A stretch of 64,000 bases of DNA from Eledone cirrhosa (lineage: Eukaryota): the NCBI GenBank assembly GCA_964016885.1, contig OZ024741.1, positions 87,544,001 to 87,608,000 on the forward strand, given 5' to 3'. Position numbers and translations under genes: made by a program. The notes beneath the pieces were generated by a model. That model worked only from the letters and a program-made list of their open reading frames with translations, searched no databases and was not told the DNA's origin. How positions within the stretch are numbered: the first letter of the stretch is position 1; every line of letters begins with the position of its first letter. Positions 38,866-63,127 of this stretch are shown one piece after another.

Positions 38866-38956
38866 CGAAGGAAATGTGGTAAGGAACCAGGTGGACCATA
38901 ACGCACCAAAGTACTCAATACTTGAGGTAGTAGAGTGGGTAATAGGAACCAGTAAG

Positions 38957-39050
38957 ACCCCGACAGCTGAGCTCAAGCCGTTTCGACGGCTAATTCTGGA
39001 CTAAATGAACATTTATCCTGGTATTTAAATAGCCGATCTTCTCAAGGGGT
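38957..39050 (-). ncRNA. Type-I hammerhead (U3:A8), mirror of 44066-44159
   Basis: Reverse complement of the 44066 motif. Confidence 0.8.
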
Positions 39051-40149
39051 AATTCCATATATGGTCAAAGTGATTGTCAAAAATCAGTAGTAATTCTGTG
39101 GTTGCAAATTAGTAGGGGAGATGGTGGCTAAACCTGCCAGTAGGAGAAAGAGGGGAGGGGGTGGAGTAGACCCAATCAAGCGTTGGTAGTGCCAGCTACA
39201 GCTGGGCATGAGGTCAAAGAAGATACAGGGGAGGGGGAGGGGGAGGAAGTCGGAACGGTAGGTAGAACAATGGGGGGTAGAAATAGGAAAGAAAAAATAC
39301 TGAGAGTGAAGAAAAGCAAATAAGTGTAAAGAAAAAATTAAATTCTACGACCTAGGTGTCAGGCTATTGTTAGGCGAGAATAAAATAAAGAAAGAAAGAA
39401 AGAAGTAAATAAATAAATAAATAAATAAATAAGGAAATACGTAAAAGAACTAGGTGGGACGAATTAGGCAAGGACCCTTTTAAGAGGTATAAGTACGTAA
39501 ATGATACGGTGACTGGTCAACAAAAGGGGCCAAAATACTAAAGAGACTACCACGAAATAAACAATAAAGGTTTCCATCCCGGGCCAGCAACGACCCAGTG
39601 CAGCAAAGTGAACTTGTACGACATAATAATTCTGAGTCCCGAGAAAAATATATACTAATGCTAACTCTAAAAGATCTAAAACAAGCTACATGAAAGTTCG
39701 TACGAAATAAAGGTAGAATACGGAGAAATAAGTTCAGAATCCACCCCGCCCAGAAGAAAAGCGAAGCAAGAAATACTGAAACGAAAAAATAAGGCATAAG
39801 TGCCACTAAGAAATATAGAGGGCACAGAGAATAGTGGGAGCGGTCGGAAAAGGGGGGCAAGTATCCGGGGTCTAAGCCAACTGCTATAAAGGGCGGCGTC
39901 CGCCAAATCTATCAAAGACTAGGGGAGGGGGGAGGGGGGGTACTAAGGCTACATGGGGCCAAAGGGCAGCCTCGGGTGGGCGAGGAAAAGACGCCGACAA
40001 AGGAGAAGAGCTGGGGTAGAAGGACAAAGGAGAGAGGGGGGAAGGAAATAAAGGATGCGATAAAAGAATACAAAGAAGATCTTACGTCTTCCTTGGCAAG
40101 CAGGGGTTACCCATTGCAAAATCGGCAACTGGGGTGTTATAGCCCTAGT

Positions 40150-42195
40150 CTACCCCCCCGGGTCATTATGGGGTTTGAGGGCGAGGTAAGTCCTACGCAA
40201 TCTATGTTTACATGCAGTAACCAGTTCATCTTTCTTGTTTAGGAGTCGGTCCGTCGAAAACAGCATTTGTAAAGTTTCCTCCGAGCATAAATTGCACGGA
40301 CGGCGTCCTCCCGTGTAAGAATTGGCTCTGGACAGTAATCTCCAAGTGAGATCATAGGTGATGTTGTTGTCCTTGAGGTCCCATATGTGGCCCGAAAGTG
40401 TAGTGGCGTGACGCCGGGCCGGGTTTCGGAAGGTATGTCTATGTTGGTATAGCCGGGTCTTGAAGTCACATGCGGTAAGTCCTATATAGGCTTTGTTGGA
40501 GGTATCCGTCCTCACGTTGCACTGGTAGATCACATTACGGTCTCTGCATCTATTGTCGAGTGGGCAAATAGATCTATCCGGGCAGTTACACCTCCTGGTC
40601 GGTTCTCCACTGCTATTTAGGTTATTTCTGCCATCGGGGTTGAGTTTTTTGTTGTTAGAGGAGACGATGTTTTGTGCGAAGTTTGGTGTAGTGCTGTAAG
40701 AGAGTTTGATGGTATTTTTGTTAATTATGTTGTGGTAGCGGTGTTGTAATGGGAAGTGTTTTTCAATGAGCCTAAAGAATAGTTTCCCGATGGGAGTAGT
40801 CACCTCTGCGTTGTGGGGAGGATTGAACCATGTTACATTGCGTGAGCGGCGGTGTCTCCTGCTGGTTCCGCTAATGGGATCTGGACAGTAGGATATTTCC
40901 TCCCGGAAACCACTCCGCTTGAGGGCCTGGTTGTAATAAGGCGCATGTTCATCGAATATCCGCTCATTAGCTGACAAACGGGATATGCGGAGGGAGATGT
41001 TTTTGACCAGGTTGTTTGTGATGTTCCTAGGATGGTTTGATCGGCGGTGGATGTAGTGCAGATTGTCATTAGGTTTCCTGTATGGGTAGTACAGGTCGTT
41101 TTCGAGGTCGAGGGTTACGTCCAGGAAGTTTACTCGGGTCAGGGACGTTTGTAGGGTTATTTTAAATCCCCAGTCGCGGAAGAATCTGATTAATTGTTTC
41201 CGGACCCGATCTGTACTACTGGGGTTGTACCCTTTAAGGGTAAGGAGCCCATCATCACGGTACAATCCACCACCGAATGCAGGAAACATATCAGTGAGTT
41301 TGGCTATTAGGAATAATCCTATAAGATCAGTGACCTCCGCCGAATCCGTGGCGCCCATGCTGACGTCGAAGGGTGAGTCGGGAGCTCTTTTTATCCATTT
41401 AGAGTCGTCAAAGAGTAAGACTGTCTTCCTGGCGTGGAGGATGATTTTTCTTTCCTGGTCGGTGATGGGCACGAGTGTTTCGGCGAAGTCCAAGGCGGCA
41501 GTAAGTAGCGGTAAGGTGATTGAAGCATAGTAGCTCTCTATGTCGAACTGTATGAATTTAGTTTCTCGTTTATCCTCCATATTGCTGAACCAGGAGATTA
41601 CTTCCTGGGTGTTGATCCATAGGCTAAGTCGGGTGTGTTGCTTGACTTTTGGTATCACGCGGTCTAGGATTTTTTTGCTGATTCTCCCTATGTCGGACTT
41701 CGTTGGGTTAATAAGCCTGATGGAGGGTTTACGGTCAAAATCGGATTTATGGTCCTTCAGTGTGAAGTATGGTGTCCGTGGGTCTAGAGGTTCCGTGCGG
41801 TCGGCGACCCCGAGGCTGGAGGTGATTTGTTGTCCATCTCGATTTATGTCCTCGATGCAAGAGTGGTTGGCCTTTTTATAGGTGGAGTTTAGGCTGCTCC
41901 TGATCAGTGTGTGGTATCTGTCAGGGTTGACAAAGTATAGGTTCCCAGTTTTATCCGAATGCACCATGATGTCATTTGTGTTATCATACTCTGTTAAGTT
42001 GCTACGGAGTTTTTGTAGGAATCGGTTGTGTCTGGGTTTAAATTTAATGTTCTTGACCAGTTGGAAGAGGTCATTCTCGAAGGGTGCGAGCAAGGGGTTC
42101 AGGGGCGGAGATTTGTAGGTAATAAATCCGAATCTCTCCTTGGTGCCGAAGTCTTGGTTGTCGCAATATCTGTCATAGAAAAAAGTTCTCCATCT
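40150..42195 (-). CDS. PLE RT + GIY-YIG endonuclease, open but slightly 5'-truncated (ORF-track start 42264 runs into the inverted arm)
   Basis: DKTGNLY, TLKDHK, RLINPTKS, FDIESYY, MGATDSAE, GLYRDDGL, SNHP, WFNPP, CNC-CPL-C, VIY...YIG, CNLC. Confidence 0.9.
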   Translation of the reverse strand, partial: RWRTFFYDRYCDNQDFGTKERFGFITYKSPPLNPLLAPFENDLFQLVKNIKFKPRHNRFLQKLRSNLTEYDNTNDIMVHSDKTGNLYFVNPDRYHTLIRSSLNSTYKKANHSCIEDINRDGQQITSSLGVADRTEPLDPRTPYFTLKDHKSDFDRKPSIRLINPTKSDIGRISKKILDRVIPKVKQHTRLSLWINTQEVISWFSNMEDKRETKFIQFDIESYYASITLPLLTAALDFAETLVPITDQERKIILHARKTVLLFDDSKWIKRAPDSPFDVSMGATDSAEVTDLIGLFLIAKLTDMFPAFGGGLYRDDGLLTLKGYNPSSTDRVRKQLIRFFRDWGFKITLQTSLTRVNFLDVTLDLENDLYYPYRKPNDNLHYIHRRSNHPRNITNNLVKNISLRISRLSANERIFDEHAPYYNQALKRSGFREEISYCPDPISGTSRRHRRSRNVTWFNPPHNAEVTTPIGKLFFRLIEKHFPLQHRYHNIINKNTIKLSYSTTPNFAQNIVSSNNKKLNPDGRNNLNSSGEPTRRCNCPDRSICPLDNRCRDRNVIYQCNVRTDTSNKAYIGLTACDFKTRLYQHRHTFRNPARRHATTLSGHIWDLKDNNITYDLTWRLLSRANSYTGGRRPCNLCSEETLQMLFSTDRLLNKKDELVTACKHRLRRTYLALKPHNDPGG

Positions 42196-42966
42196 AAGCG
42201 GAGTGGTTTCCGGGAGGAAATATCCTACTGTCCAGATCCCATTAGCGGAACCAGCAGGAGACACCGCCGCTCACGCAATGTAACATGGTTCAATCCTCCC
42301 CACAACGCAGAGGTGACTACTCCCATCGGGAAACTATTCTTTAGGCTCATTGAAAAACACTTCCCATTACAACACCGCTACCACAACATAATTAACAAAA
42401 ATACCATCAAACTCTCTTACAGCACTACACCAAACTTCGCACAAAACATCGTCTCCTCTAACAACAAAAAACTCAACCCCGATGGCAGAAATAACCTAAA
42501 TAGCAGTGGAGAACCGACCAGGAGGTGTAACTGCCCGGATAGATCTATTTGCCCACTCGACAATAGATGCAGAGACCGTAATGTGATCTACCAGTGCAAC
42601 GTGAGGACGGATACCTCCAACAAAGCCTATATAGGACTTACCGCATGTGACTTCAAGACCCGGCTATACCAACATAGACATACCTTCCGAAACCCGGCCC
42701 GGCGTCACGCCACTACACTTTCGGGCCACATATGGGACCTCAAGGACAACAACATCACCTATGATCTCACTTGGAGATTACTGTCCAGAGCCAATTCTTA
42801 CACGGGAGGACGCCGTCCGTGCAATTTATGCTCGGAGGAAACTTTACAAATGCTGTTTTCGACGGACCAACTCCTAAACAAGAAAGATGAACTGGTTACT
42901 GCATGTAAACATAGATTGCGTAGGACTTACCTCGCCCTCAAACCCCATAATGACCCGGGGGGGTAG
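42196..42966 (+). pseudogene. Inverted duplicate of the PLE linker + GIY-YIG
   Basis: Same protein as the 40150 ORF except DRLL>DQLL. Confidence 0.9.
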
Positions 42967-44065
42967 ACTAGGGCTATAACACCCCAGTTGCCGATTTTGC
43001 AATGGGTAACCCCTGCTTGCCAAGGAAGACGTAAGATCTTCTTTGTATTCTTTTATCGCATCCTTTATTTCCTTCCCCCCTCTCTCCTTTGTCCTTCTAC
43101 CCCAGCTCTTCTCCTTTGTCGGCGTCTTTTCCTCGCCCACCCGAGGCTGCCCTTTGGCCCCATGTAGCCTTAGTACCCCCCCTCCCCCCTCCCCTAGTCT
43201 TTGATAGATTTGGCGGACGCCGCCCTTTATAGCAGTTGGCTTAGACCCCGGATACTTGCCCCCCTTTTCCGACCGCTCCCACTATTCTCTGTGCCCTCTA
43301 TATTTCTTAGTGGCACTTATGCCTTATTTTTTCGTTTCAGTATTTCTTGCTTCGCTTTTCTTCTGGGCGGGGTGGATTCTGAACTTATTTCTCCGTATTC
43401 TACCTTTATTTCGTACGAACTTTCATGTAGCTTGTTTTAGATCTTTTAGAGTTAGCATTAGTATATATTTTTCTCGGGACTCAGAATTATTATGTCGTAC
43501 AAGTTCACTTTGCTGCACTGGGTCGTTGCTGGCCCGGGATGGAAACCTTTATTGTTTATTTCGTGGTAGTCTCTTTAGTATTTTGGCCCCTTTTGTTGAC
43601 CAGTCACCGTATCATTTACGTACTTATACCTCTTAAAAGGGTCCTTGCCTAATTCGTCCCACCTAGTTCTTTTACGTATTTCCTTATTTATTTATTTATT
43701 TATTTATTTACTTCTTTCTTTCTTTCTTTATTTTATTCTCGCCTAACAATAGCCTGACACCTAGGTCGTAGAATTTAATTTTTTCTTTACACTTATTTGC
43801 TTTTCTTCACTCTCAGTATTTTTTCTTTCCTATTTCTACCCCCCATTGTTCTACCTACCGTTCCGACTTCCTCCCCCTCCCCCTCCCCTGTATCTTCTTT
43901 GACCTCATGCCCAGCTGTAGCTGGCACTACCAACGCTTGATTGGGTCTACTCCACCCCCTCCCCTCTTTCTCCTACTGGCAGGTTTAGCCACCATCTCCC
44001 CTACTAATTTGCAACCACAGAATTACTACTGATTTTTGACAATCACTTTGACCATATATGGAATT

Positions 44066-44159
44066 ACCCCTTGAGAAGATCGGCTATTTAAATACCAGGA
44101 TAAATGTTCATTTAGTCCAGAATTAGCCGTCGAAACGGCTTGAGCTCAGCTGTCGGGGT
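44066..44159 (+). ncRNA. Type-I hammerhead, U3:A8 core variant
   Basis: ACCCC-TTGAGAA-GA(T)CGGCTA...TAGCCGTC-GAAA-CGGCT..GAGCTC..AGCTG-TC-GGGGT; cleavage triplet GUC at 44152-44154. Confidence 0.8.
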
Positions 44160-44169
44160 CTTACTGGTT

Positions 44170-44209
<40 letters not shown>

Positions 44210-44215
<6 letters not shown>

Positions 44216-47200
44216 GGTTTGAGGTTCACCACTGTATAGAGCTGGTCTATTCCGTATGGTCAATCGTAATGCAATAATGTAGAGAGTACTCAACGTAAAG
44301 CAGTTCAACCGTCTTTGTTTTTGTAGTTGGTGGTGCTATTACGGAGTTAAATATTATAATGAAATGACAGGAGGCTGGATTTGTGTAAATCCTTGAAAGG
44401 TTTATTATACTATGATCATTTCAATGACCGGGTTCCGTATGAATCCGGTGATATCATCAGGTATTCGAAATATAATACGTGAATGTAATAGGTAAAATCC
44501 ATGGGGCTGAAAATCGAGACCCGAGGGCGACCGCTATTCTGTTCCTTCAACCTCAGCCGGTCGCCCTGGAGTGACGTGGCTAAATTTTATAGTATGCTAC
44601 TACCGGTCAGATGAACGAAAACAGTAAAACACTGTAAAACACTGACTCCCAATATATTCATCTCCGCTAAGATGCGGGTCCCTGTGAAAATTTTCTCGCG
44701 CCACTCCTGGCTTGACCGTGGTCTGACATTAATATCGACCTTTCTTCCTCTTCCTTTCTATCTTCCTTCTTGTAGCCATCAACCCTTACTTTTCTACTTC
44801 TCTCTTCCCTTCCTTCTCTCCTCTCCTCCTCCCGCAGACTTATCTTCCTTCCCCCTCTTGCTTGCCTATATCTGACCAGTAGTAGTTACCTTCCTCTTTT
44901 AGCTGATATTAACCCTGACTTCTCTTCTTCTTGCTTCCCCCTTCTTCTCCTTCCTTTCTTTCTTTCTTTTACCTTGTGTCATGGGATCGACGTTAACCTA
45001 TGCTCCCATCCTTTCTGTTTTCGTTCATCTGACCGGTAGTAGCATACTATAAAATTTAGCCACGTCACTCCAGGGCGACCGGCTGAGGTTGAAGGAACAG
45101 AATAGCGGTCGCCCTCGGGTCTCGATTTTCAGCCCCATGGATTTTACCTATTACATTCACGTATTATATTTCGAATACCTGATGATATCACCGGATTCAT
45201 ACGGAACCCGGTCATTGAAATGATCATAGTATAATAAACCTTTCAAGGATTTACACAAATCCAGCCTCCTGTCATTTCATTATAATATTTAACTCCGTAA
45301 TAGCACCACCAACTACAAAAACAAAGACGGTTGAACTGCTTTACGTTGAGTACTCTCTACATTATTGCATTACGATTGACCATACGGAATAGACCAGCTC
45401 TATACAGTGGTGAACTTCAAACCTGAATAAATAACGCTCCTGAAATGTTGAGCACTTCAAAATGTAATAATCAACAGCGGCATGGGACTGAATATATCTA
45501 ACCACAATTCGAACTTTGGCTACCCGGTGCTTTCGCCTGGCCCTTTGCTACTCCCCTCACAGAATATCCGAACTTCGACGAAACTCCACGGACTGGACCA
45601 TAACATGTATTGTACTGCACTGAATTAACTAAATGGCTACCCTATACTTCTGGGCATGTATAACTCACACTGAACTCCCAGACTCGAACACGCACTGTTT
45701 CCACATCTATATGCATTATCTGACTGCAACTTGAACTATATTGTATTTCTTCTGTGTCTTGAACTCTCCATTTAATAGACAACGACTCTTGTTTGTTTAT
45801 TTATATCTTTACATCTTTATTTGCTGTATTAATGCTCCTCCACGTATTCTACCTCTATACATCCATGTACTTTCTACTTCCCTTATTCGGACTTTTACTC
45901 GCGTGTACCCTCAGCACACGTCACTGGGACATTTCCCCCTGGGAACATAAATACCGCAACCTGAACTATATTGTATTTCTCCTGTCTCTTGAACTCTACA
46001 TTTACTAGACAACGACTATTGTTTGTTTATCTATATCTTCACATCTTTGTTTGCTGTATTAATGTCCTGATTTCTCCATCTTACTCCAACACCACTCTTG
46101 TTGGTTTATTTACATGTTTATACCTATATATTGATATGTTTATATATTTATACCTCTGCTGTACCAATGTGCTCTTCCACATATTCCACTTCTATGTATC
46201 CATGTATTTCTACCCCTCACATTGGGACCTGTACCCATTAGCACACGACACTAGAATGTCTCCTCCTGAGAACAAAAATTAAACATTACACGACTATATC
46301 CCGTACTCTACATCCCACTAGGATAAATTACAGATCTACATAATACAATTAACGTTTCTTCATAAAAGACTATTTAATTAAACCCCGCAACCCAAAACCT
46401 CATAGAAGTTATTTGAATGTCTAATCTTCAATTTTCTGTTTGTTCAATTCTCAATCCTCTTACTCCTTAGTTTTATAATGTTATTCTGAATTCTTTCAAC
46501 TTCATCCGATAGAGTTAAGCAAAATTCTAAAGTTCCAACTTTCTGTCGGACCGTTGGGTGGGTTTTAGCGGCGGCGCGACCAGCTCCCTGGCGAACGGGC
46601 TCACCTGGAGTGCTTGGAAAAATAAATTCCCCTTCTTTCGGTAAATGAAAATACTCGGCGTGGCTTAATTAGCCATGGGGCCCGGGGCGCGGCCAGTGTT
46701 TTAACCGCCAAATAGTACCTTTAAATTACAGAACAAATCGGAGCTATTATATATATCAACCTGAAACTGTTGAGCTTTAAATTTTCTAACCTCTTTAATA
46801 TGGAATATTGATTATTAATTTATTAATTTTTTAACTTCATCCTATAAGTCTAAACATTGTAACACACTGACCCCCAATATATTCATCTCTGCTAAGATGC
46901 GAGTCCCTGTGAAAATTTTGTCGCGCCACTCCTGGCCCGACTGTGGTGTGACATTAATATCGACCTTCCTTCCTCTCTCTTTCTATCTTCCTTCTTGTAG
47001 CTATCAACCATTACTCTTTTACTTCTCTAAGCTAAATTTTAAAGTTCCAACTTTCTGTCGGACTGTTGGGTGGGTTTTAATGGCGGCGCGACCAGCTCCC
47101 TGGCGAACGAGCTCACCTGGAGTGCTTGGAAAAATAAATTTCCCCTTCTTTCAGTAAATGAAAATACTCGGCGTGGCTTAATTCGCCATGGGGCCCGGGG

Positions 47201-48017
47201 CGCGGCCGTTGTTTTAACCGCCAAATAGTACCTTTAAATTACAGAACAAATCGGAACTATTATATAATTAATTGTTAAACTGTTGAACTTTAAATTTTCT
47301 AACCTCTTTAATATTGAATATTGATTATTAATTTTTTTAACTTCATCCTAGAAGTCTGAACACTGTAAAACACTGACTCCCAATATATTCATCTCCGCTA
47401 AGATGCGGGTCCCTGTGAAAATTTTCTCGCGCCACTCCTGGCTTGACTGTGGTCTGACATTAATATCGACCTTTCTTCCTCTTCCTTTCTATCTTCCTTC
47501 TTGTAGCCATCAACCCTTACTTTTCTACTTCTCTCTTCCCTTCCTTCTCTCCTCTCCTCCTCCCGCAGACTTATCTTCCTTCCCCCTCTTGCTTGCCTAT
47601 ATCTGACCAGTAGTAGTTACCTTTCTCTTTTAGCTGACATTAACCCTGACTTCTCTTCTTCTTGCTTCCCCCTTCTTCTCCTTCCTTTCTTTCTTTCTTT
47701 TACCTTGTGTCATGGGATCGACGTTAACCTATGCTCCCATCCTTTCTGTTTTCGTTCATCTGACCGGTAGTAGCATACTATAAAATTTAGCCACGTCACT
47801 CCAGGGCGACCGGCTGAGGTTGAAGGAACAGAATAGCGGTCGCCCTCGGGTCTCGATTTTCAGCCCCATGGATTTTACCTATTACATTCACGTATTATAT
47901 TTCGAATACCTGATGATATCACCGGATTCATACGGAACCCGGTCATTGAAATGATCATAGTATAATAAACCTTTCAAGGATTTACACAAATCCAGCCTCC
48001 TGTCATTTCATTATAAT
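44210..48017 (+). mobile_element. ORF-less PLE-architecture element: inverted arm + 659-bp direct repeats, 2731-bp period
   Basis: 44210-44624 inverted to 45015-45429; 44628-45286 near-identical to 47359-48017; three HHRs; (TA)n flanks. Confidence 0.85.
45175..45232 (+). ncRNA. Type-I hammerhead (copies at 47906-47963 + and ~44407-44464 -)
   Basis: ATAC-CTGATGA-tatc-ACCGG...CCGGT-catt-GAAA-TGATCA-TA-GTAT; palindromic loop 3; triplet AUA. Confidence 0.75.
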
Positions 48018-48124
<107 letters not shown>

Positions 48125-48425
48125 CACATTCACACACAAGGTACTGGTCATCCAGAGATTCATAATTCACGCAGTAGGACTGAATATTACATAGTTGTGA
48201 AGTGAATACCTAAATCACACAGCCATACCTACACCAATCGTTAACTCTGTTATTCAACTACCTTCGAAAAACAAGAAAATACGAATGTACATTGTCATAA
48301 CAAATTAAGTACACCTGAAGTTGTATATACCTGTTAAAACAAAACTTTTTATTTTTCAATCTATCAAAGAAGATATTTAATGACTACTGAATTATACAAA
48401 TTTGCAGAAACTTACACACATGTGC

Positions 48426-48520
<95 letters not shown>

Positions 48521-48577
48521 ATATATATATATGTGTGTGTGTGTGTATATATATATGTATGTATATGTATGTATGTA

Positions 48578-48638
<61 letters not shown>

Positions 48639-49055
48639 AATTATTTACTTGTTTTGATATGTTTGCTGTGTATATTTTGGAGGAAACACAGTGTTTTAAG
48701 AAGCGGATTTGTTCTGTTGTTATTGTAGTTTTTATATAACAGAAAACAGTGTCTTTCAATAACCTTTCAGCTTGGCACAAGCTAATGCCATAACGGCGAT
48801 GAATTAGTTTTGCGAGGTTTTTTATATGAAATCGTGTGTCGAAACAAATATTGTTATACTTGGGTAAGGTCATATTTGTGTAATATTGCCAGAATTAATA
48901 ACAGAACACACTCACTGTTTGGTTGGTTTTCGCTTTTCGCTTCTGTGTCTTTTATATCGGTAATCTAATTTACTCGGTCCTCAATGTTGCCATTGACTGA
49001 CCGACGGTCAAAAATAATACAGATACAATATAGACACAAACACATATATATAGTT

Positions 49056-49099
49056 TATCATAAAGCTTTCGTTGCACATCTGCAACATCGTCAGTGGTG
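49056..49099 (-). ncRNA. Minimal type-I hammerhead (stem I eroded)
   Basis: CACCA-CTGACGA-t-GTTGCA-gatg-TGCAAC-GAAA-GCTTTA; palindromic AAAGCTTT. Confidence 0.7.
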
Positions 49100-49511
49100 C
49101 TCTTGTTTCCTCCCGTTGCATTGTATGTCTACGCCATTTTTATTTAGTCTGTCTATATATTTATTTGTTTATTTGCTTGTTTGTCTATTTTATTTTGTCT
49201 TCTTTGCGCATGCGTTTGCGTGTGTGTATAGTGTTTTGTTTGATGTGTGTTCGTGATTGGGTGACTAGTGTGTGTTTATGTGTTTGTTGTTATTGTGCTT
49301 GTGTATGTATTTATTTATTTATTTATCTATTTATTTACTTATTTATACTTCTCTTAGGTCAGTGTTCTTTGTTTGGGTGTTGTTGTTATTCCGTTCATTC
49401 TTTCTGTTTAGTCTTGGCCTTCTAAGTTCTATTTCACTGGCCTCTCTGATTTGCCTATCTGCTGGGTCATTTCTATGTTTAGATATTATTCTAATTTCTA
49501 TGTTGTCTATG

Positions 49512-50099
49512 TTACCGTTGTGTTGTTGTCTGGCATGTTCGTAAAGTACTGATCCGTTTTTTCGTCCTTTTAGTTCCCCCCCAGTGTTGGTCTATCCTTT
49601 CACCTATGCTACGAGCTGTCTCACCTATGTATGTTGTTGTCATGTTTCTGCAAGTACCCTCTGTACATCTTATGCTATAGACTACGTTTCTAGTTTTACA
49701 GTTTATCTGGGAGTTTATCTTACATATGATACATTTCCTATTGGTACAGTGGGTTTTCTTAAAAGGGTAGGTTTTGCTGATCAGGGATTTTATGGTCGTT
49801 CCTGGCTTTTCTACCACCTTAATTTTTAAGTGGGTCTTTCTCAGGGCCTTTCTACACTGGTTAGTTAATTTCCCTCCAGAGGTAGCGTCCACAAACATGA
49901 CACTCTGGTATCTCTGGTTATCGTACCATGAGGTGGCTTTCCCTATCTTATGTCTGGCCCTATCTAAGCTATTCCATGATTTGCTCCTGTATAATGGGAA
50001 AATTCCTTTCATGTCCAGTTCTATGAGGGTCTTATACTTCTCCATGGCTCCTTCGTATACTCTGACTCTGTCTCTTTGGTTGTAACCAGAGAACTGCAT
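49512..50099 (-). pseudogene. PLE C-terminal region with Cys cluster and GIY-YIG
   Basis: SGY..R, PLYR, IKVVE, C..C..C..CKTRNVVY...YIGETARS..ERI..H. Confidence 0.8.
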
Positions 50100-50508
50100 G
50101 CGGTTGATGACCGTCGGTCAGTCAATGACAACATTGAGGACCGAGTAAATTAGATTACCGATATAAAAGACACAGAAGCGAAAAACGAAAATCAACCAAA
50201 CAGTGAGTGTGTTCTGTTATTAATTCTGGCAATATTACACAAATATGACCCTCCCCAAGTATAACAATATTTGTTTCGACACACGATTTCATATAAAAAG
50301 CCTCGCAAAACTAATTCATCGCCGTTATATATATATATATATATAATTGGTGTTGGATGCTTAAAGCATCCGTATGCGGTAGGCCGTTTGAGAACTCGAT
50401 GCTCTCATAGAGCAGAGTGCTCAAACGGCCTACAACATACGGACGCTTTAAGCATCCAACACCAATTATTTTGCTCCTCCCCAAGTCTAACGCTTGAAGC
50501 GAATTGCC

Positions 50509-53362
50509 ATGGAGAAATTCCAGTACTCTTCCTCACCCAAAGACATCCCGATTCCTTCGACAACACCTACCTTCGCCTACTCATCCACCATACTAACTCT
50601 TTTGTCAGGCGCATGAGATGGAGCGCCATCCACTAAGACAACGGGAATACACAACAGACACAGGACGTCAGCCGCGATCACCCCAAGAGGATTTTCAAGT
50701 TCAGACGATACCCCCCGCACAACGAGGCACTGGAAGAGTTTGAAAACCGCCTAGTAAGCATCGTAAGGAACATAGAATTCAGCAGGAATGCAGCGCGTGG
50801 AAACGAGTACCTGAAGGAGCTCAGTTCCAAGATTAAAAGCATGGAGAGTTGCCCGGAATTACTTGTACCTTCAGATAAGACGGGTAACATTTACAGGATG
50901 AACCACAGAACCTACGGAAAATGCATTGAGAAAGAGATTAGGAAGATTTATAGGATTACGGGACAGGACAACCTTGACAGAATCAACAACACGACCAAAA
51001 AGTTAATGACGGGACTAGAAGTAGCAGACAGGACAAACAGTACGTACCTAGAAAACCGCGAATTTCTATCAAGGACCATAAATTAGACTTTAAGATTAAC
51101 CTCCCGGTTAGACTAATAGCACCCTCCAAGTCGGACCTAGGTAGGGTCAGCAAGAATATAATAGATAGGATCCTGCCCACACTTATGAATAGAAATAGAC
51201 CTAGCATATGGACTTCCACTAAGGAGGTAATCGACTGGTTCACAGCGCTGCCCACCAAACAGCAAGTGAACTTTGTGCAGTTGGACATAGCAAATTACTA
51301 CGCGTCTATCTCACCAGTAATTGTAAACAAGGCCCTCATGATCGCTATGGCAAGGTCCAACTTAACTAGAGGTGAAGTGAACATCATTATAGCTACTAGA
51401 AAGACGTTCATTAGGTTTGACGGTAGATTATGGAAAGGAGAGATAGACCCGACAGTTTTGACATCACCATGGGCTCGATCGACTCCGCACAGGAGACGGA
51501 CCTGGTGGGAATTTATCTACTCCGTAAGTTAGCAGAGGAGATTCCAGGAATAGGCGGGGGGGATATATAGAAACGACGCCCTATTTACCTTCCGCTCACT
51601 AAACTCTACCCAGCTGGAGCGCATGTGGAAGCGCATCTCATATTTCTTTAAGCAGAGCGGCTTATCCGTGCTAATAGAAAATAGCACTATGACGGTAAAC
51701 TTCCTAGACGTATCCTTAGAACTGGATACAGGCTTATACCGACCATATCACAAGCCCAACGAGAACCTGCAGTACGTAAACAGGCACTCAAACCACCACA
51801 AGTCGGTTATAGACGCTATAGTAAAGGGGTACCCACCCGCGTATTCTCATTGTCCGCCAACGCGGATGTGTTCAATCAGCACGCCGACTCCTACAATGAG
51901 GCACTGGGCAGGGACGGTTACACAGAAGCCATAGTGTACACCCCGGACAAGGGCAAGTCGCATAGTGAGGAACGCAAACACCCGGATACCATTAGTAATA
52001 ACATAGGCAGACAATCTACCCGTAAGCACACACATAACAGTATAGATAGGAGTATTACACACGACAGTGATGACAGCACGGCGCATAGACAGAAGAGGCG
52101 CACGGGAACCCTATGGACCCCAGCACATACGGACTGAACCGTAGTAACAGCACAGACCAGGAGGGAGAAACGAAAGATAGTGAAGTAGATAATGCAGCAC
52201 GGAACTTTGAACACGATAGGGATAACACCAAGATTAAGAATACCAACAATGATACGGCAGGATACTCGGGTAGCAGGACAGGGACGCAAACTAGGGCTAG
52301 TAAACGTGTCCAGAACAATATAGGGAGTGAATGCCTTTCCACAGACTTAAGTAATAGTTCTAAGCATAGGGATAGAATAGGGGATCAAATAAGAGTAGGG
52401 CGTAACCCGAGAAAACAACATGACAATGCACACACTACTAGTAGCAGACGACGAAATAGGAACAGATCTAGAAACATAACATAGTTCAATGCACCATACA
52501 CGCACCATACACGAAGCATGTACGCACTAACGTGCCAGGTCTCTTCTTCAGGGCATTGGTCGAGTGTTTCCCGACTTCACACAGCTCCCACAAAATATTC
52601 ACACCGTAAGTTCTCATTTTCCACGGCACCCAACATAGCAGACTACATGGCCGAGGCCAACGCATTGAGATTGAGGACACCCCATCGACAAACCGATCAG
52701 GCCCCAGACACGGCGGAGAGGAGCGCACGGGGAAGTGGTTAGTGGTTCTGGAGATGTGCCTGGGGCGGAGCCGTGGCAGCGGAGGACCCCACACCTGTCA
52801 ACAGAGACCAGCTGGTGGTGAACACTGAGTCCACTACCCTGCCGGAGCACCACTTGAGGACCGGGGAGAAGCCAAATAAGACGCCAGGCCCACATAAGGG
52901 GAATTACAAAAATGATGCACGGACCTGAACTGCCATGTTGGAGAGGAGTGCTCTCTGTAGGGAATGTGCCTGACTAAGGGCGTTATCTACAGATGTGTGC
53001 TTACCACGCACAGCGATAGGCATACATACATCGGAGCAACATCCACGACTTTTAAATTCAGGATGTACAACCACAAAAACTCGTTCAAGGACAGGAACAA
53101 GAGACACTCCACCAGACTGGCGGACTTAGTATGGGGACTCAAAGACAGTGGCATAGAGTTTGACCTCAGCTGGAGTATTGTACAGCGTGCGAATGCGTAC
53201 TCGGCCGGGGAGAGGAAGTGCAAGTTATGCCTGTCCGAGGCTATGGAGATATTAAAACTTAAGGGCGACGCAGTCAACCTCAAATCTGAAATCATCATGG
53301 CCTGCAGACACCAACGTAAATGCACGCTCTCCGTTTTAGTGATACCAGATGGGTCTATCTAA
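50509..53362 (+). pseudogene. PLE RT + GIY-YIG, frameshifted, with long linker insertions
   Basis: KDIPIPS, RRMRW, DKTGNIY, LDIANYY, IYRNDAL, YHKPNE..YVN..SNH, VIYRC..YIGAT, CKLC. Confidence 0.85.
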
Positions 53363-62176: not shown

Positions 62177-63127
62177 TTAAGTTATTTTATAGTGAGAGAA
62201 TTTAGCCTTTAGTTTGTGGTTACAGTATAATGATCGTTCGATTCTGTCATTTAGTAATTTATTTTGGGATTTTAAGATGTAAAAGAGTTCAAGGTTACAT
62301 AACCTGCAGTACTTCAATCCACTCCGATATGCACTAACGCTGGAAAGTATATCCCATTTCAAGGTGAACTGTTGGTTGCGTTCACGGAGTTGCCAGGTCT
62401 TATTGACGAGCGTGGTCACAAAACGGTGATTAGGATGTTTAATTGAGAATCGATGACGATACCAGCGAGATTTAAAGGAGGTAGTGGTAGACCCGATGTA
62501 ATACCATTTCTGGTCGTTCGATTCGACAGTGCATTGATAAACAATGTTGGACTTTAGGCATTTATTCTTCAATGGACATCTTTCAGGTAGGTGACAGTTA
62601 CAGTTTTTATTGTGGGTAGCAGGTATACCGTGGATAGGTTGGGATAACAGTTCAGGTGGGTTGTGTAATACCCGTCTCCCATTTAGTGGTTGGGAGGCCG
62701 ATACTACGTTATGCTCATCTGTTATTAAAATATTTTGTTTTGTAGTGTTGTTTAATTGCTTTAAGTTAAGTTTTTTTATGTATGCTTCAAGGTTTGGTGC
62801 AGTGGAGTATGATAGCTTAATAGTCTTAGAGTTCAGAATTTTATTGTATTTATGGGAACTAGGGAAATGCTTGTTGATTAACTTAAAGAATGAAAGAGAT
62901 AGTTTTGTACTAATCGAAGCATTAAAAATGGAATTATACCAGATATACTTTCTACAACGTGATTTATTTGGTGATGATTTTCTATTATTAGTATGTCTGG
63001 TGGTACTGCGTGTGTGCGCTTGTATTTCTGTACCCCGGTTACGTATTCTTTGATTTCGTGTAGAGCTATGTGTGTTATGGAGATTCTTATCAATGTATTC
63101 TATTTTATCCACTAATATACACACCAT
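62177..63127 (-). pseudogene. Naiad-like PLE linker + GIY-YIG (5' truncated or degraded)
   Basis: IWYN, KHFP, TIKLSYSTAPN, CNC..CPL..C, IVYQC, YYIGST..FKSR, CRLC. Confidence 0.85.

Follow-up and report, generated by a model that had tools for sequence, protein, structure and literature searches.

The insertion at positions 44206–48017 of the 64,000-nt stretch of Eledone cirrhosa DNA analyzed here (contig OZ024741.1; the window) is very probably a non-autonomous PLE. More specifically, we lean towards the reading that it is a multi-copy, ORF-less element that would be mobilized by Hydra-clade machinery and copied from a circular monomer RNA; taken separately, the chances of the circle as the template appear evenly balanced.

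TA runs border the insertion on the left (44172–44211) and on the right (48021–48128); these represent the (TA)n target microsatellite. The short inverted arm (44206–44627, minus strand; 422 nt) is the inverse of 45012–45433 with an identity of 99.3%, its 415-nt core containing 2 mismatches, and its outer end is a long 3′ end, about +200 past the predicted hammerhead cut (tail 199). The long arm (44628–48017, plus strand) contains 1.24 monomers, and its outer end is a short 3′ end at about +58 (tail 61). There are two direct repeats in this arm (44628–45286 and 47359–48017, both plus), which are 659 nt each, have 3 differences and a period of 2731 nt; the upstream one is a 5′-truncated pseudo-LTR that would represent a second pass over the monomer end. 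The PLE architecture described in the first-pass annotation (inverted arm, 659-nt repeats, TA flanks) thus holds at its coordinates, with the arm extended to 422 nt. The 3.8 kb had been taken as the size of the element, but it is two cDNAs (422 + 3390 nt) joined back to back; insertion lengths at other loci vary from 0.4 to 5.3 kb, and 3.8 kb describes the window insertion only.

By a hand motif scan, hammerhead cores were found at +45179, +47910 and −44460. Hammerhead 1 (45175–45232, plus), of type I, has a stem I of 4 bp, the core CUGAUGA, a long stem II with a U.U junction and a C.C mismatch, and a palindromic helix III; hammerhead 2 (47906–47963, plus) is identical to it. Cuts are predicted after 45228 and after 47959; one hammerhead lies in each direct repeat, 2731 nt apart, as had been noticed. 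Three motifs are indeed present, but a design with three hammerheads is not: the unit carries one, and the third (44407–44464, minus; core at 44460) is merely the short arm copied antisense, a by-product of two-ended copying. The cut-to-cut monomer (45229–47959, plus; 2731 nt) has 40% G+C and a longest ATG frame of 86 aa. It includes a PLE-type tail of about 147 nt (45287–45433, plus), which spans the gap between the two fixed 3′ ends, and a non-coding interior (45434–47358, plus), where the window copy does not have a 70–84 nt duplication near 46159–46242 that most copies have. An internal 512-nt duplication (46516–47534, plus; 91%) contains a G+C-rich block.

Several observations concern the surroundings and joints of this insertion. 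A Hydra-like PLE insertion adjoins it at 38942–44174, the left TA run being common to both; it has 1979-nt arms at 99.9%, the core variant UUGAGAA, and short and long ends at +17 and +97. Contigs from four sequencing runs of one study cover 27–28 of 30 bins and contain inversion-type joints; they are uninformative on expression. Inversion joints recur in contigs at window position 44518 (equivalent to 45121); this site, some 108 nt upstream of the cut, may be a hotspot at which short arms stop or are joined.

With Rfam silent, the grounds for the hammerhead call are the hand scan and conservation: at E ≤ 1, no hammerhead match was found in positions 40000–52000, and neither a ribozyme nor any other credible family in the element and four related loci, where the matches stayed below gathering scores and came almost exclusively from miRNA models aligned to microsatellites and inverted arms. 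The exact type I core pattern (CTGATGA...GAAA-TGATCA-TA) has 4,975 matches genome-wide, as compared with 0 for the reversed control, a frequency that is not due to chance. Among 104 distinct hammerhead sequences (a set enriched for variants by the search patterns), stem pairs are kept in 96–102, with one pair varying among A-U, G-U and G-C; the C.C mismatch persists in 97, and at the junction before GAAA the pair is U.U in most. Helix III consists of an 8-nt palindrome, the character of the dimer type hammerhead (PMC4209133), and the young subfamily has A-U in place of G10.1-C11.1, the usual pair in that source. The predicted energies are −4.0 (active) versus −14.9 kcal/mol (minimum) for the monomer and −24.6 versus −33.4 kcal/mol for the dimer: the active fold lies about 11 and 9 kcal/mol above the respective minimum, because the core pairs with the palindrome. 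On these predictions, the cutting would be weak or protein-assisted.

The interior is multi-copy. A search of the genome gave 854 candidates; 40 of them were scored, most having 97–99% identity, and 39 of the scored loci were taken at 9.5 kb each for comparison. The youth that the first-pass annotation had assigned to the insertion is likewise supported. The first 20 loci inspected with their flanks are almost all TA-flanked and tandem or inverted, with variable 5′ truncation; the lineage thus has partial-tandem pseudo-LTRs and 5′ truncation, and in it two or more successive units each carry a type I hammerhead. The modal monomer length is 2802–2805 nt (full range, 1904–2851 nt), which makes 2731 nt a minority length and not the fixed unit size that it had been taken for. 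The 21 distinct cut-to-cut segments (1904–2805 nt; 75–100% identity to the window copy; longest ATG frame, 120 aa) come from several subfamilies, and all of them are collinear and ORF-less. Sister subfamilies found with relaxed core patterns are also collinear over the monomer; these patterns (83 and 216 matches) yielded sister subfamilies and point mutants, with no linked ORF in the loci fetched. Such a range of monomer identities, combined with the lack of an ORF, points to an old non-coding lineage with a recent burst.

The lack of a long ORF and of an RT or GIY-YIG remnant was also confirmed in the element itself. The longest stop-to-stop frame within it is 112 aa; none of 9 element frames passed the cut-off against Pfam, one having two sub-cut-off matches (E 0.011 and 0.069); and tblastn with 37 PLE ORFs of the same genome gave a best E of 0.026 in the element, while the same ORFs matched 15 bins elsewhere in the window as a positive control. 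Among 255 non-redundant stretches upstream of lineage hammerheads (a small sample relative to the 4,975 cores, biased to the search patterns used), 30 have unexplained or PLE-matching parts, and a PLE protein match was found in 3: one chimera (L278) and two in flanking DNA.

Two further sequences recur within lineage copies. One is a motif of about 56 nt (47120–47175, plus, with a second, slightly altered copy near 46608–46663), which contains two short palindromes, with AATAAA located in a loop, is almost invariant across subfamilies and is often duplicated; its first 24 nt have 934 exact matches in the genome (control, 0), and it is a candidate promoter or RNA signal. A second structured RNA there is unsupported: the consensus fold of 35 sequences has a single 5-bp stem without covariation, and G-C/G-U/A-U variation in a second hairpin was seen by eye only. 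The other is a short element of 100–110 nt, nested at differing places in many lineage copies and found elsewhere in the genome (L094, L095, L097, L334, L353).

The copies end at about +52–65 or about +192–207 past the cut, and not at the cut itself. In back-to-back insertions, one short (about +54) and one long (about +200) end were paired in 41 of 41 cases, and then in 19 of another 20, among which one locus of the first 41 recurs; the sole exception (L334) is short/short. The inverted 5′ arm with a tail at only one end was seen in the same proportions. This fixed-end geometry is that of the PLE tail, which is present at one end only (PMC8557442). For an anole PLE in vitro, the tail is accounted for by RT initiating internally at two sites downstream of the hammerhead (PMC11167929); the two 3′ ends of the lineage match these, and the fixed ends would thus be the reverse-transcription starts.

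The template can be characterized by comparing differences within and between insertions. Direct repeats within one insertion have 68 differences in 18,243 nt (0.37%; 22 of 40 loci), and inverted arms 78 in 20,615 nt, whereas the mean difference between loci is 1.11%, with a nearest-neighbour median of 0.49%. Twenty-seven private alleles, absent from the other sampled loci, occur in both direct repeats of an insertion. The private-allele density in single-copy parts, 0.35%, matches 0.15% inherited plus 0.19% later. Since repeats inherited separately down a linear lineage would differ, the monomer end seems to have been copied afresh from one source. In addition, all arms begin downstream of the cut and extend across it, and the template junction must therefore have been intact, either uncut or rejoined. 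These features fit one template copied for more than one round, by way of a circle or of template jumping; gene conversion would also allow shared alleles. A circular template, as proposed for PLEs in 2014 (PMC4209133), gains indirect support from the arms crossing an intact junction and from the tandem repeats sharing private alleles. In the Hydra family H1, within-insertion similarity is seen in one of two tandem loci (99.3% within versus a median of 97.0% between); the other, L328, does not fit, with only 96.1%.

Judging from the insertion signature, the lineage is probably mobilized in trans by a PLE protein, and the helper likely belongs to the Hydra clade. The genome is rich in PLE families, with 10,597 GIY-YIG candidates. 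For H1, 59,797 first-look candidates were found, and 150 were scored at 93–100%; its unit of 3180 nt has a 777-aa ORF and carries RWK and CxCx5C, and DKT in L194, which are Hydra motifs (PMC8557442). The element has neither the ORF of RT and C-terminal GIY-YIG nor these motifs, all present in H1. The ends of H1, +54 and +197–203, are paired in 6 of 6 cases and agree with those of the lineage, while most of 14 other families differ; the poorly sampled H7 has a long end near +204, and several families have a short end near +50. Because H1 is abundant and autonomous and has the same ends, we favor it, by a small degree, as the helper. The tail likeness between the lineage and H1 is weak and depends on scoring (z of 2.6–3.9 or −0.2 to 2.4; 15 families compared), H8 and the tatata2 family scoring as high as H1 for some queries, and the region past the tail gave no alignment with H1 (z −0.4 to −1.5). 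The GIY-YIG loci (50 of 150 fetched) and the H1 and H3 loci share nothing with the element except separate insertions and the chimera, and its interior has no alignment with ORF-bearing PLEs among the loci fetched. In the chimera (L278:4830–7865, TA-flanked), a 500-aa Hydra H3 ORF runs straight into the final 920 nt of the lineage with no TA between them, making it a candidate for a template switch between helper and parasite RNAs. No other chimera was found, and its partner being H3, a different Hydra family, speaks against H1 as the helper. The window also contains an H1 copy at 62180–62617 (minus), an endonuclease end with 95% amino-acid identity.

If the template is a circle, the insertion could have arisen as follows. 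A tandem locus would be transcribed across two hammerheads; the two motifs would pair through the palindromic helix III, probably with the help of a protein, and after the cut the ends would be rejoined. The helper would nick both strands of a (TA)n run, and cDNA synthesis would begin near +54 at one side of the target and near +200 at the opposite side. Each cDNA would cross the junction and run for a variable length, past a full turn in long arms, which would yield the pseudo-LTR; and the two cDNAs would join back to back, giving the inverted arm and the "third" hammerhead. An extension that we offer tentatively is a lineage of 2–3 kb non-coding circular RNAs, three times the largest described retrozyme and long parasitic on Hydra PLEs. 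With similar reserve, the circular-RNA reading would imply that the ribozyme, the two RT start sites and one internal motif have been kept through 25% divergence.

A possible but doubtful alternative is a non-autonomous PLE copied from linear read-through RNA, in which the downstream hammerhead is uncut and the RT switches to the redundant end, either on the transcript being copied or on a sister transcript. It predicts the same shared alleles and end pairing, and the chimera L278 resembles such a switch. The active hammerhead fold is predicted to be disfavored, and for the anole PLE in vitro the cleavage was dispensable for insertion, no RNA-seq reads ending at the cut (PMC11167929). However, a fixed RNA 5′ end should pile up truncations at the cut, and a hand tally among the first 100 of 181 matches gave no sharp pile-up: of 32 truncations near the cut, 4 are at it (9 when the 5 at +2 are counted), 9 lie farther downstream and 12 upstream, the other 2 being inversion joints. 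Moreover, subfamilies that have diverged by 25% retain both core and stems, suggesting that the cutting is of importance.

We regard it as improbable that the copies derive by deletion from an ORF-bearing lineage member, or are long pieces of its UTR, with repeats homogenized by gene conversion. The upstream stretches examined number only 255 for 4,975 cores, and PLE 3′ UTRs in this genome are long, low-complexity and internally repeated, resembling the interior; but the collinear, ORF-less state of 21 of 21 complete monomers from several subfamilies speaks against it, none of the GIY-YIG or Hydra loci fetched has the lineage interior, and in the first 21 loci shared and unshared alleles are interspersed and not in tracts, contrary to what gene conversion would leave. 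A viroid-like replicon copying RNA to RNA and reverse-transcribed only occasionally seems highly improbable. It could account for the source-private alleles that insertions carry (0.15%) and for T>C being the commonest class (13/45 versus 18/121), and RNA-to-RNA steps were floated in PMC4209133; many DNA source copies are nevertheless a simpler origin of such alleles. The folding is neither rod-like nor unusually stable: when 19 sense-strand windows of 150 nt were scored, z fell below −2 in just two, of which one extends into the TA flank. The motif scan found no minus-strand ribozyme within the monomer. The RNA replicon proposed in the first-pass annotation is therefore not borne out, the monomer showing no viroid-like structure, either in extensive base-pairing or in ribozymes of both polarities.

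Returning to the non-autonomous PLE, we compared the lineage with known systems. Like animal non-LTR retrozymes, which are likewise proposed to use PLE machinery, it is non-coding and low in G+C, with one type I hammerhead per unit and head-to-tail repeats. Its monomers of 1.9–2.85 kb lie outside the sizes given for retrozymes, namely RNAs of about 170–400 nt (Cervera and de la Pena 2020, PMC7229834) and consensus sequences of 51–972 bp (Li, Clavereau and Pollet 2026, 10.64898/2026.07.22.740005), the latter limit being partly methodological as that screen was limited to period 1000. Unlike retrozymes, the lineage is dispersed, has fewer than two units per arm in the sample, and shows 5′ truncation, inverted arms and PLE tails; circles have been demonstrated for retrozymes, while the lineage is known here from DNA. 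The word "giant" thus holds against published retrozymes but not against PLEs, since the autonomous Hydra unit here is longer. The 2026 preprint argues that retrozymes are non-autonomous PLE derivatives.

Hydra-clade PLEs (Craig et al. 2021, PMC8557442) share with the lineage (TA)n targets, a hammerhead near the 3′ end, tandem and inverted insertions, a one-end tail and a unit near 3 kb; unlike them, the lineage has no ORF, and homology of its interior to the sampled Hydra families was not detected. MRC1 and other non-autonomous Chlamys PLEs (PMC8557442, PMC9940879) are similarly ORF-less, with pLTRs, head-to-tail and recently active, but they belong to another clade in green algae and are generally helper-like at the 3′ end, the lineage being only weakly so. 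As in the PLE hammerhead variants of PMC4209133, stem II is long, stem I is short, an extra base follows A9 and helix III is palindromic, and, like PAc (PMC11167929), the lineage has two fixed 3′ ends downstream of the ribozyme. It differs from the forms described in these two papers in an additional U before GAAA, in its conserved C.C mismatch and in the length of its tail (about 147 nt versus 30–40). Schistosome W-elements, four families of which carry hammerheads, reach about 1.3 kb (PMC8490949). TOC1 does not count as a large non-autonomous PLE, PMC9940879 classing it as a DIRS element. No description of an animal 2–3 kb hammerhead-bearing, ORF-less PLE lineage was found in the literature covered, subscription journals and Repbase lying outside the scope and supplements of the 2026 preprint possibly listing longer families. 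The lineage would thus be a large non-autonomous PLE, retrozyme-like in its working but outside the retrozyme size range; its own size matches that of autonomous PLE units (3180 nt). What is new is its size and longevity, non-autonomous PLEs with pLTRs being already known in algae.

The genome contains other hammerhead families. Several with the extra U before GAAA and loops of TATATA, TGCGCA or TACGTA (L096, L082, L100, L153; window 31781, minus, and 56997, plus), most of which showed no linked ORF at the loci inspected, could represent non-autonomous lineages parallel to this one. Hammerheads repeated in tandem every 450–470 nt or so (L020, L057, L107) are a candidate for an ordinary small retrozyme in the same genome. 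Neptune-like families (L143, L144, L116, L124) have the core variants UUGAAAA and UUGAUAA and fixed end pairs of their own.

These results bear on how PLEs make more-than-unit tandem insertions and on what PLE hammerheads do: DNA alone points to a single source, copied more than once, behind both repeats and both arms of an insertion. They also suggest that a size class escapes retrozyme screens limited to 1 kb, and that there is a gradation from retrozymes to non-autonomous PLEs. The lineage provides a cargo-free substrate, in thousands of copies, for a direct test of the circle model. Should there be no circle, the lineage is a non-autonomous PLE of the ordinary sort, albeit a large one; if the circular-RNA reading is true, PLE reverse transcriptases would use ribozyme-made circles as templates.
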